DNA of 64,000 bases from assembly GCA_003173865.1 (NCBI GenBank), contig PJMF01000012.1, forward strand, positions 8,908 through 72,907, given 5' to 3'. This DNA is from Minisyncoccota bacterium (GTDB lineage Bacteria > Patescibacteriota > Microgenomatia > UBA1400 > PJMF01). Shown piece after piece: positions 42,835 through 47,813 of the stretch. The notes below the pieces were generated by a model. That model saw only the letters and a program-made list of their open reading frames with translations, made no database searches and was not told the origin of the DNA. The number at the start of each line of letters is the position of its first letter. The stretch's first letter is position 1. The position numbers were made by a program, and so were the translations under genes.

Positions 42835-43695
42835 TTATTTAGAAATCCACAGCATGCTTAAATCAAACACTTTTGCGGAATGTGTAAGGGCGCCGGAAGA
42901 AATATAATCCACACCGGTTTCAGCAATTTGACGGACATTTTCCAAAGTGACATTGCCAGATGCTTCGAGTTTTGCTTTTTTTGCGTTGTCGGCGTTGAGT
43001 TTCACTGCTTCGTGCATCATTTCCACACTCATGTTGTCGAGTAAAATATACTCAACTCCCAATTCCAAACCAATCTTCACATCTTCGAGCGTACGCGCCT
43101 CAATTTCGATTTTTAAGTTCTGATTCGCAGCACGCGCTTTTTGGACTGCCTTAGACAGCGATCCAGCAAAATCAATGTGATTATCTTTTATCAAAATCAT
43201 GTCGTACAAACCCATCCGGTGGTTTTGCCCCCCACCACGTTGTACCGCGAGTTTATCTAATCGACGCAAACCTGGAGCGGTTTTGCGCGTGTCAAGCATC
43301 ACCGTTTTTGTTCCTTTTATCGCGTCAACAAATTGATTCGTCATCGTGGCAATGCCCGACATTCGACCCAAAAAATTGAGCGCTGTTCGTTCGGCAGTCA
43401 AAAGAGCTCGTGCGTTTCCAGAAATCTCAACCAACGCTTTTCTATTCTCCACTTGTGAGCCCTCGGTTACTTTCATAATAAATTTTACCTTTGGATCAAA
43501 CAACCGAAATGTCGCTGCAGCCACATCCAGACCAGCAACCACACCTTTCTGTTTCGCAATAATCTGCGCGCTCATTCGTGCCTCAACAGGTACAATGCTA
43601 TTCGTCGTGACATCACCTTCACCAACATCTTCAGCCAAAGCGTGAGTAATTGTTTCGAGAATGGAGGGAGAAAGTGCAGTTGTATTCATTTTCAT
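42835..43695 (-). CDS. nadC: Nicotinate-nucleotide diphosphorylase (quinolinate phosphoribosyltransferase)
   Basis: ED...GDVTT, ERTALNFL, DTRKTAPG, HRMGL.D.ILIKDNH, LLDNM, EASG and GALTHS motifs. Confidence 0.97.
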   Translation of the reverse strand: MKMNTTALSPSILETITHALAEDVGEGDVTTNSIVPVEARMSAQIIAKQKGVVAGLDVAAATFRLFDPKVKFIMKVTEGSQVENRKALVEISGNARALLTAERTALNFLGRMSGIATMTNQFVDAIKGTKTVMLDTRKTAPGLRRLDKLAVQRGGGQNHRMGLYDMILIKDNHIDFAGSLSKAVQKARAANQNLKIEIEARTLEDVKIGLELGVEYILLDNMSVEMMHEAVKLNADNAKKAKLEASGNVTLENVRQIAETGVDYISSGALTHSAKVFDLSMLWISK

Positions 43696-43701
43696 AAAAG
43701 C

Positions 43702-44451
43702 TCATTCCGGAAGCTCCATATTTAAATCAAAAAGAGCGTGCTCACCTAATTCCAATAGGCTGCGATTCAACGCAACAAATTCTTGCATTCCTCTTTGACC
43801 TTTAGAGTCATATATGTATCCATCTCCAGAATATAGTTCTCTGAGTTGAACTGTAAAGTACAAAAAAGCTCGGATATCAGCAAGTGACATCGGAGAAGCT
43901 AAAAATCGATCATAGGTCATAAATAGTGGATGGTTCTTTCCGGCTTTCTCTATATCTAAAAATGATGTTCCCGTGATCGTTTCAATTTCAGAAAATGTTT
44001 TTAATTTCAATTGCTCTCTATGAATATTAAGTGTTATGGCAATATCCGGATAAACCACTGAGATTAAATCCAACGTGTTGTCCCATGTCGCTGATTTTGC
44101 TACCTCATCATTCTCGGGAAAAACAATTAACTTAAATTGAGTACCTGCCCTAACCTTATGCACAATATAGTCTGGGTGATAACCAATTGCTAAAAGCATT
44201 TCATAACCACTTTTTCCGGGCAGTAAGGAGAGTCCGTCCGCAGCCATGAGCATAACTAACTTGCGCATGGGATCATCACTTAACATTTGAAAATCTTGTG
44301 CTGCAGTTCCGCGCAAAATTCGTCCGCATAAATGTTCTGCTCTTATTATTTCCGAAGAACGTAATGCTTCAAGATATAAACCCAAATCTGAAACTGCCTG
44401 TAATTTGTCTATATCAATATTGCTTTGAGCTTTTTTTACTTCTTTTGGCAT
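43702..44451 (-). CDS. Hypothetical protein between nadA' and nadC
   Basis: 249-aa ORF with 6-nt and 19-nt gaps to its co-oriented neighbours. Confidence 0.7.
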   Translation of the reverse strand: MPKEVKKAQSNIDIDKLQAVSDLGLYLEALRSSEIIRAEHLCGRILRGTAAQDFQMLSDDPMRKLVMLMAADGLSLLPGKSGYEMLLAIGYHPDYIVHKVRAGTQFKLIVFPENDEVAKSATWDNTLDLISVVYPDIAITLNIHREQLKLKTFSEIETITGTSFLDIEKAGKNHPLFMTYDRFLASPMSLADIRAFLYFTVQLRELYSGDGYIYDSKGQRGMQEFVALNRSLLELGEHALFDLNMELPE

Positions 44452-44470
44452 AAATTTCTTAATGAATTCG

Positions 44471-45022
44471 TTAACCTACCGCCAACATCCGTTCAATTGG
44501 CAACCTTGCCCTTTCTGCAATTTCAGCTGGAACCCTAACCTCAAACTTTAAATTCATTAAACTATCCAATAACTTCTCCAACGTAATCATTTTCATAAAT
44601 TTGCATACCATGTCATCGCGCAAAGGATAAAACTTTTTCTCTGGATTTTGCTTCCGCAGTTGGTGGATAATACCATTTTCTGTGGCCACCACATATTCTT
44701 TCACTGGAGATTGTCGAACATGAGTCAACATGCCACCTGTAGATAAGATATGTGTTTTTTGTTCAGGGATTTCTTTTGTTGCCGCATAGTGAATACATTC
44801 TGTTGTGCAACCGCATTCAGGATGAATTAAAAATTCTGCTGATGAATGTTCGCTGAGTTTCTTTAAAACATCTTTTAAATTCGCGCGTGCATGAACGTGA
44901 CACTCACCCGGATAAACATAGATTTTCCGACCAGTCATTCTTGCCACATAACTTCCTAAAAATAAATCCGGCACAAAAATGATTTCCTTATCTTTTGGAT
45001 TATATCGTTCAAAATAATTCAA
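44471..45022 (-). pseudogene. nadA: Quinolinate synthase NadA, C-terminal fragment (5'-truncated)
   Basis: IIFVPD.FLG, GECHVH, HPEC, STGGM, ATE.G and C.FMK motifs are present. It is only 183 aa, and the N-terminal region with the first Fe-S Cys is absent. Confidence 0.8.
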
Positions 45023-46240: not shown

Positions 46241-46270
46241 TTGCCCAGCGGTACTAAAAAATGGTACACT
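46241..46270 (+). promoter_or_regulatory. Sigma70-type promoter of the glyQS T-box leader
   Basis: TTGCCC-N18-TACACT with a TG extension; the predicted +1 is near 46277, the first base of stem I. Confidence 0.65.
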
Positions 46271-46276
46271 AGCCAC

Positions 46277-46415
46277 GTGGCATTGATTGGCTTGGCAACC
46301 GGGAGTCACAAAACAAAGTGGGCAAGCAAAATGTGCAAGCCAACTAGGGTGGAACCGCGATTCTTCATTCATTGGAGAACCGTCCCTATAAAGTATAAAG
46401 TACTTTATGGAGACG
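46277..46415 (+). ncRNA. T-box riboswitch (translational/SD-sequestering), Gly specifier, ultrashort stem I, no stem II
   Basis: GTGGC-ATT-GA-TTGG-CTT[GGC]AA-CCGG-GA-GTCAC (K-turn hairpin); T-box AACTAGGGTGGAACCGCG at 46342-46359; antisequestrator TAGGG/CCCTA and GCG/CGT; the sequestrator 46381-46415 covers the GGAG SD. Confidence 0.88.
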
Positions 46416-46418
46416 TCT

Positions 46419-47813
46419 ATGTTTACATCAACCCATCCTTCCCTCGAAGATATCGTCGCCCTGGCTAAACGCCGTGGATTTGTTTTTCCTACTTCTGAAA
46501 TTTATGGCGGACTTGCCAATTCCTACGATTACGGTCCACTCGGAGCCGAACTCCTCCGCAATATTCGCAATGAGTGGTGGAAACAATTTATCCACAAACG
46601 TCGTGACATGGTTGGACTTGATTCCCAAATCATGCTTCACCCCGAAACCTGGGTAGCATCTGGGCACGTTGGTTCTTTTTCTGATCCACTCGTCGAAGAT
46701 AAAGTCACCGCAAAACGTTACCGCGCCGACCATCTTATTGAGGCTTGGCTTAAAGAACAAAAACTTGAAAGTAATGAAGTTCAAGTTGAAAATATGCGCA
46801 TTGAGGAAATGGGTGAGTTTATCGCGACCAAAAACATCACCAGTCCAGATGGCAATCCAGTCACAGAGCCACGCAGCTTCAATTTATTATTTGAAACCGC
46901 AATTGGATCAGTAGCTGGAGAAAAATCAAAAGTGTACCTCCGCGGAGAAACAGCTCAGGGAATTTTTTCAAATTTCAAGCAAATTTTAGATTCAACGCGC
47001 GTGCAACTTCCGTTTGGGGTTGGACAGATCGGAAAAAGTTTCCGTAACGAAATTACAACCGGGCAGTTTGTTTTCCGTACTCTTGAGTTTGAACAGGCCG
47101 AAATCGAGTACTTTTTTAACCCTGCTCAAAGTGACTGGAAAGAACTTTTTGAAGACTGGAAGAAAAGTATGTGGAGTTTTGTGACCGAAATACTCGGGAT
47201 TCAAGCTGAAAATCTGCGCTGGCGCCAACATACTGATAAAGAACGCAGTCATTATAGTAAAGATACATATGACCTCGACTACAACTTTTCATTTGGATGG
47301 AAAGAACTTTGGGGAATTGCTTACCGCACTGACTACGACTTGAAGCAACACATCAATCATTCTGGAAAAAGTTTAGAGTACACTGATCCCTACACTGGCG
47401 AAAAATTCGTGCCTCACGTCATTGAGCCGGCAGTCGGTGTAAATCGAATGTTCTTGATGGTGCTCAGTGATGCCTATTTTTACGATGCCGAGCGTCAAAG
47501 AACTGTTTTACGCCTAAAGCCAAACTTAGCACCGTATAAAGTTGCTATCTTTCCATTAGTCAAAAACAAACCAGAAATTGTAGCTAAGGCTGAAGAGGTT
47601 TATCAACTCTGTGCGGTTGTTGCTCCCACCGTCTGGGACGATCGCGGTAACATTGGGAAACGCTATCTTAGTCAAGACGAGATCGGTACGCCTGCCTGCA
47701 TCACGATTGACTACCAAACTCTCGAAGATAATACAGTGACTTGGCGAGACCGAGACACTACTGAGCAAGTTCGAGTCGCTATCTCCGACCTTGCCCAGCG
47801 CATCCGGATGTAA
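46419..47813 (+). CDS. glyQS: Glycine--tRNA ligase (alpha2, GlyQS type)
   Basis: KRRGFVFP.SEIYGG, YLRGETAQG, GKSFRNEIT, FR..EFEQ.E and PHVIEP..G motifs; SD GGAG 6 nt before ATG 46419. Confidence 0.97.
   Translation: MFTSTHPSLEDIVALAKRRGFVFPTSEIYGGLANSYDYGPLGAELLRNIRNEWWKQFIHKRRDMVGLDSQIMLHPETWVASGHVGSFSDPLVEDKVTAKRYRADHLIEAWLKEQKLESNEVQVENMRIEEMGEFIATKNITSPDGNPVTEPRSFNLLFETAIGSVAGEKSKVYLRGETAQGIFSNFKQILDSTRVQLPFGVGQIGKSFRNEITTGQFVFRTLEFEQAEIEYFFNPAQSDWKELFEDWKKSMWSFVTEILGIQAENLRWRQHTDKERSHYSKDTYDLDYNFSFGWKELWGIAYRTDYDLKQHINHSGKSLEYTDPYTGEKFVPHVIEPAVGVNRMFLMVLSDAYFYDAERQRTVLRLKPNLAPYKVAIFPLVKNKPEIVAKAEEVYQLCAVVAPTVWDDRGNIGKRYLSQDEIGTPACITIDYQTLEDNTVTWRDRDTTEQVRVAISDLAQRIRM

Follow-up and report, generated by a model that had tools for sequence, protein, structure and literature searches.

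T-box riboswitches are sorted into four classes, among which class II carries a long stem I and class III requires stem II (PMC10482949), and in the published schemes every T-box has either an elbow-binding platform or stem II. PMC7583486 names the strong GGC/GCC duplex as the reason that glycine T-boxes need no stem II, reports that a truncated stem I with an Ile codon barely binds tRNA when stem II is missing, and states that transcriptional T-boxes generally need the IDTM. For the glyQS T-box of Bacillus subtilis, deletion of the platform halves the on-rate and abolishes the ultra-stable complex (PMC5951919).

The leader described here precedes a glycine-tRNA ligase gene on the forward strand of a 64,000-nt stretch of DNA (the window, to which all positions refer). 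We consider it fairly probable that the leader forms a T-box whose stem I measures 33 nt and bears an apical GGC, and which has no elbow platform and no stem II; it would likely bind tRNA-Gly(GCC) at only two points and, in this copy, probably control the translation of glyS.

The glyS leader carries a T-box with an ultrashort stem I

The T-box extends over 112 nt (46277-46388), and every element named in the original prediction was found in its predicted place when sequence and fold were checked. Stem I is only 33 nt long (46277-46309) and consists of a 5-bp C-stem (GUGGC 46277-81/GUCAC 46305-09), a K-turn formed by an AUU bulge and tandem GA (46285-86 and 46303-04), a 4-bp upper stem (UUGG 46287-90/CCGG 46299-302) and an 8-nt apical loop, CUUGGCAA, which holds the putative specifier GGC (Gly, 46294-46296) followed by A46297. 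An 11-nt A-rich linker (46310-46320), too short for either stem II or stem IIA/B, ends in an RRRNG motif (AAGUG 46316-20, identified by motif tests) and leads into stem III (46321-41) with its 3′ AA (46342-43). Both the K-turn at stem I's base and the RRRNG-stem III-AA module (46321-46343 for stem III and AA) are present by sequence pattern and covariation, their geometry being predicted.

The antiterminator-type (ON) fold at 46345-46388 is supported by a match to RF00230, by covariation and by folding. It comprises helix A1 (46345-49/46384-88) and helix A2 (46357-59/46381-83), with an added hairpin, such that UAGGG-UGGAACC-GCG (46345-59) has CGUCCCUA (46381-88) as its predicted pairing partner. 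The T-box bulge, UGGAACC (46350-56), is a 7-nt UGGN bulge, and its UGGA is complementary to the U73-CCA end of tRNA-Gly as originally proposed, since the tRNA-Gly(GCC) encoded in this genome does carry U73.

The Rfam model RF00230 matches the leader (E 3.8e-4), but at 30.9 bits the match is far below the gathering score of 93; on R1, a model built here, this copy scores 72 bits as a seed member. Stem I by itself is not unusually stable (z −0.17, single-sequence hairpin tests of this kind being weak), and the case for it is therefore made by comparison. We reject a chance motif, as none of 100 shuffled versions of the window contained GGCA at T-box spacing.

Relation to published T-box classes

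With the class II T-box of B. subtilis glyQS (RF00230) the element shares Gly specificity, the GGC specifier, the UGGA bulge, the K-turn, the RRRNG-stem III-AA module and a single-stranded linker that replaces stem II. Its stem I, in contrast, measures 33 nt rather than about 100, lacks the AG bulge and distal loop (IDTM), and presents the specifier in an apical instead of an internal loop; minimal leaders score 27-55 bits on RF00230 where they are matched at all, against a cut-off of 93. With class III (Nocardia farcinica and Mycobacterium ileS) it has in common the short K-turn stem I, the apical specifier and the lack of an IDTM, and this copy may also have an SD-sequestering output. However, stem II and stem IIA/B (S-turn, pseudoknot), said to be required in class III, are missing here, the amino acid is Gly and not Ile, the loop has 8 nt instead of 5-6, most relatives bear a terminator, and the element is non-actinobacterial. 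The Staphylococcus glyS T-box with its stem Sa likewise controls a single-chain glyS and has extra antiterminator structure, whereas it is transcriptional with a long stem I.

The element thus fits none of the four published classes as these are laid out in PMC10482949. A literature search covering titles and abstract openings, with most subscription journals outside its coverage, found neither a description of this architecture nor a paper combining T-box, riboswitch and Microgenomates. The proposal of a new minimal class therefore stands within the literature searched, but not as a class limited to one lineage or to Gly (see below). Some such leaders may already be listed in TBDB, because its translational model is applied to entries with a truncated stem I.

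Stem I and its GGC are conserved among related glyS leaders

To place the element among its relatives we used the leaders of the 30 best GlyRS loci from 61 genomes searched, one per genus and picked by protein. A T-box core is present in 22 of the 30 and absent from 8, and R1 finds the identical 22. The original prediction hinged on GGC being conserved in homologous loops, and a GGC does sit in a hairpin loop of all 22 T-box-bearing leaders, 51-115 nt before the T-box and followed by A in 21, compared with a background of 17 GGC starts at 1744 other positions. A loose RRRNG-stem III-AA pattern is found in 21/22.

Stem I pairing was tested in the 14 of 22 leaders that could be anchored on two GA dinucleotides by sequence alone (8 stem positions each), leaving out seven with a bare hairpin and no K-turn and one with a degenerate K-turn. 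Pairing was seen in 102 of 112 cells, as against 70.4 ± 4.0 with the 3′ halves shuffled (0/20000 as high). In a hand-picked, mostly motif-selected set (A2) the covariation score is 0.457 against 0.149, with slid partners reaching at most 0.171, and both partners vary in 9 of the 10 pairs of stem I; a model-fitted set (A3), biased to the model, gives 0.56 against 0.17. Stem I thus covaries, as the earlier proposal required of an alignment of related leaders, and the K-turn hairpin with GGC in its terminal loop is borne out by sequence pattern, covariation and the conserved triplet. The K-turn is absent from 7/22 T-box leaders (L011, L012, L016, L019, L023, L024 and L027), which carry GGCA in a bare hairpin and so display a still simpler stem I.

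Among the 22 glyS T-box leaders, none has an IDTM-like pattern or an F-box, and a loose S-turn pattern occurs in 2. Together with the position of the −10 box (below), this leads us to conclude that both the elbow platform and stem II are truly missing; the predicted lack of both a long stem I and stem II holds in this copy too, where the 33-nt stem I and 11-nt linker show no IDTM-like pattern.

Gene and upstream context argue against a long stem I

The gene downstream (46419-47813) matches NCBIfam PRK04173 (E 2e-180, 600 bits, cut-off 312), a single-chain (alpha2) glycine-tRNA ligase, and is therefore named glyS and not glyQS, as had first been supposed. It belongs to a 1.2 Mb genome that is 95% complete. 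Among the matches listed, its product is 79% identical to the GlyRS fragment of L148 and 73% to that of L062 (both from Patescibacteria-titled records) and 72% to that of the Anaerolineae-titled L058. Translation from ATG 46407 is unlikely, as this codon lies inside the hairpin described below and homologues align from 46419.

Stem I begins 78 bases beyond the stop of the upstream ORF (46198). Further upstream, on the minus strand at 42835-45022, are ORFs that we take, by eye, to resemble nadC and the C-terminal half of nadA. A predicted sigma-70 promoter (46241-46270) with −35 TTGCCC (46241-46) and extended −10 TGG-TACACT (46262-70) agrees with the consensus at 8/12 positions, and a scanner run on the locus did not call it. 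The proposed +1 near 46277 is still a prediction, although one that gains from the relatives: a −10 box falls within the 24 nt that precede stem I in 21/22 glyS T-box leaders, against 4-8/21 for six control slots. With the −10 box directly upstream of stem I in 21/22, there is no room for a long stem I. We reject such a stem upstream of this leader for the same reason, and because the RF00230 alignment begins within the upstream ORF, without AG bulge or distal loop motifs.

The loop triplet follows the gene in non-glycine leaders

R1 matches at E ≤ 0.01, a count that takes in every type of T-box, occur in 42/151 genomes of the class and 43/151 of the phylum, and we examined 52 of the 59 class matches and 28 of the 49 new ones from the phylum. 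Of those examined, 29 precede a non-Gly synthetase gene (9 unparsed phylum loci being named by eye), and for 14 of the 29 a parser that uses pairing only recovers a short K-turn stem I. In all 14 the triplet is the cognate one and ends 6 or 7 nt before the 3′ GA: AUC for ileS, GAC for aspS, ACC or ACU for thrS, CCC for proS, GUC for valS and UGG for trpS. The chance of such a codon-gene match is ∼4e-7, counting one locus per amino acid and allowing two registers, which were fixed after the Gly cases and first outputs had been seen. The fourth base of the bulge shifts along with the triplet (UGGA, UGGC, UGGU), and the UGGC and UGGU bulges presumably fit the discriminators of the Trp, Asp, Ile, Val and Pro tRNAs. 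This natural triplet swap is the strongest evidence that the loop triplet acts as specifier.

The Ile leaders have stem II-like linkers of 49-81 nt, and linkers of only 19-25 nt are seen in a single Val leader, in two Trp leaders and in one for Asp. In six loci (L163, L167, L173, L181, L184 and L202) stem I and T-box are only 19-26 nt apart, and no stem III hairpin is predicted. T-boxes that combine a short stem I with GAC or AAC also stand before PEP carboxylase and an aspartate aminotransferase-like gene (L188, L193, L178). The source genome itself contains a second short-stem-I T-box (L002; G000:C8:45646-45833, minus strand) with the loop GUCACGA, which includes CAC (His), a UGGG bulge and a long linker; a tRNA-His gene comes next, and hisG after it. 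Long T-box leaders are present in this genome too (L001 and L004; G000:C8:19612-19922 and C32:17257-17532), one before a 310-aa ORF and the other upstream of tRNA-Trp and a trpS-like gene.

This copy probably buries the SD sequence where most relatives bear terminators

The ON fold is mutually exclusive, through helices A1 and A2, with a predicted 15-bp OFF hairpin (46381-46415; −16.1 kcal/mol, z −5.7, 0/200 shuffles as stable). Of the SD-like GGAG (46409-12) that serves the likely start ATG (46419-21, with which homologue starts align), this hairpin holds three of the four bases, so the proposed burial of GGAG applies to most of it; in the free fold G46409, G46410 and G46412 are each paired with a probability of at least 0.97. 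GGAG lies in the hairpin's 3′ arm and precedes the ATG by 6 nt, the ATG itself being 3 nt beyond the stem. The tail after the hairpin, UCUAUGUU, contains no run of U, in keeping with the original claim, but U does make up 5 of its 8 bases. Taken together, these features make it probable, on the folding model, that this copy controls glyS translation by SD burial. The ON fold speaks less clearly for such a switch: when it is enforced, the GGA of the SD is still predicted to pair with coding sequence in a helix of 3 bp, the hairpin keeps its inner 8 bp, and the ON ensemble is predicted to lie 8.5 kcal/mol above the free one.

In the mechanism that we propose, the anticodon would pair with GGC, A46297 stacking under the duplex, and the K-turn bend would bring the tRNA 3′ end to the stem III/bulge module, where an uncharged U73-CCA would pair with UGGA and hold the ON fold with the help of the purines around stem III. 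Otherwise 46381-88 would pair with 46408-15 and the SD would be buried. A two-contact sensor of this kind is plausible in light of the strong GGC/GCC duplex (PMC7583486). Weighing against it are the published findings on truncated stem I and on platform deletion, the 8/30 relatives with no T-box, the 7/22 T-box leaders with no K-turn and the absence of an L7Ae/YbxF match from the 95% complete genome.

That this output is typical of the group, as the label 'translational' had implied, is not what the relatives indicate. A terminator, scored as a hairpin that uses the antiterminator 3′ strand, has a free energy of −7 kcal/mol or better and closes at 5 or more U, is found in 15 of 21 related glyS T-boxes, including the two closest by GlyRS. 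This rule was set after the output of earlier classifiers and agrees with a reading by eye; two earlier classifiers, left unused, gave 13/22 (this copy being counted as a terminator) and 5/21, with the U run paired into the stem. In the GlyRS tree this copy groups with two terminator-bearing loci (support 98/91, the bootstrap not being fully settled), so that the loss of its U run is likely recent. The SD-burying hairpin is thus probably a derived state: most relatives would couple the same sensor to an intrinsic terminator, and this copy likely descends from such a terminator through loss of the U run and a move of the start codon to the side of the stem.

The same minimal tRNA-Gly sensor might instead act here mainly or partly by termination, at a weak, factor-assisted terminator. 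This we regard as unlikely, although terminators occupy the same hairpin in the 15/21 relatives, among them the closest by the GlyRS tree (L007, L010, L009), the tail holds 5 U in 8 bases, and SD release is incomplete in the predicted ON fold. Against it, there is no U run, the stem is followed at once by UCU, no terminator was called by the scanner after the hairpin, and GGAG is placed in the 3′ arm close to the ATG; two other copies, L041 and L140, likewise have a start codon at the end of the stem and no U run.

More doubtful still is a decaying or near-constitutive relic of a terminator T-box, with glyS no longer regulated in this genome. The leaders without a T-box (8/30) are scattered over the tree (7 changes), the U run has been lost in this copy and a two-contact complex may be short-lived, all of which would suit decay, but every module is intact, stem I (9 pairs) and the ON fold (8 pairs) consist of standard pairs throughout, the copy scores 72 bits on R1 as a seed member, and a strong hairpin over the SD that never opened would presumably hinder an essential gene. 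A protein or a third RNA contact (the A-rich linker or the hairpin added to helix A2) in place of stem II is very improbable, since purine-rich linkers in most copies and the published need of a truncated stem I for support (PMC7583486) are set against linkers that vary in sequence and length, copies with only 19-26 nt between stem I and T-box, and a 95% complete genome in which no K-turn-binding protein of the L7Ae/YbxF family was found.

Breadth across genomes

Translational control by SD burial on a minimal sensor is thus our preferred reading of this copy, and the sensor itself is widespread. A pattern scan of species genomes gave 119 loci (of about 122), of which 31 lack the antiterminator 3′ strand and look chance-like, 36 are near misses or T-boxes of other kinds, with many long glyQ leaders of Bacillota among them, and 52 parse as an ultrashort K-turn stem I (40 before glyS, 3 before glyQ, 1 before a purU-like gene and 8 not called). 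As GGC was built into the scan pattern, the 52 loci show range and not conservation; for the stem I pairing and IDTM scans the set comprised these 52, minus 3 repeats of protein-selected leaders, plus 3 near misses. The 52 loci span records titled as groups of Patescibacteria, as Anaerolineae, Clostridia and Bacilli, and as Acidaminococcus, although not every depositor label looks reliable; the design occurs in Patescibacteria, Chloroflexota and Bacillota records. It is restricted neither to this lineage nor to Gly, given the records from other phyla and the non-Gly synthetase leaders.

Five Anaerolineae-titled loci (L058, L060, L086, L100 and L154) have the same T-box, and the GlyRS of L058 and L060 are ∼70% identical to the one described here; transfer between phyla may have taken place. 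Tandem short Gly T-boxes precede glyS in L156, L162 and L167, the last combining a GGC copy with a GGA copy. The minimal Gly T-box of L151 stands before an ORF that we take, from a motif, to be purU-like.

Implications

We think it quite probable that these leaders represent a fifth T-box architecture, a two-contact sensor made of an apical codon and a 3′-end module, with neither IDTM nor stem II, which would serve Gly as well as, within Patescibacteria, Trp, Val, Asp and Thr, for the most part through transcription terminators and in copies like this one through SD control. Given the published need for stem II or the IDTM, such minimal elements go against current rules, and if true a fifth architecture would overturn two of them, namely that stem II is indispensable to a short stem I and that an elbow platform is required in transcriptional T-boxes. 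Switches of this kind in nature, having neither part, would define how little RNA is enough to read a tRNA's identity and charge and would offer a compact scaffold for structural work and engineering. With them one could also test whether, as claimed, fast binding by transcriptional T-boxes depends on the platform, as this copy and its terminator-bearing relatives offer one sensor with two outputs. Because the Rfam cut-off misses minimal leaders, counts of T-box control in Patescibacteria and in Bacillota of the gut are probably too low. The contribution of this particular locus is a probable change from a terminator to SD control on a minimal sensor.
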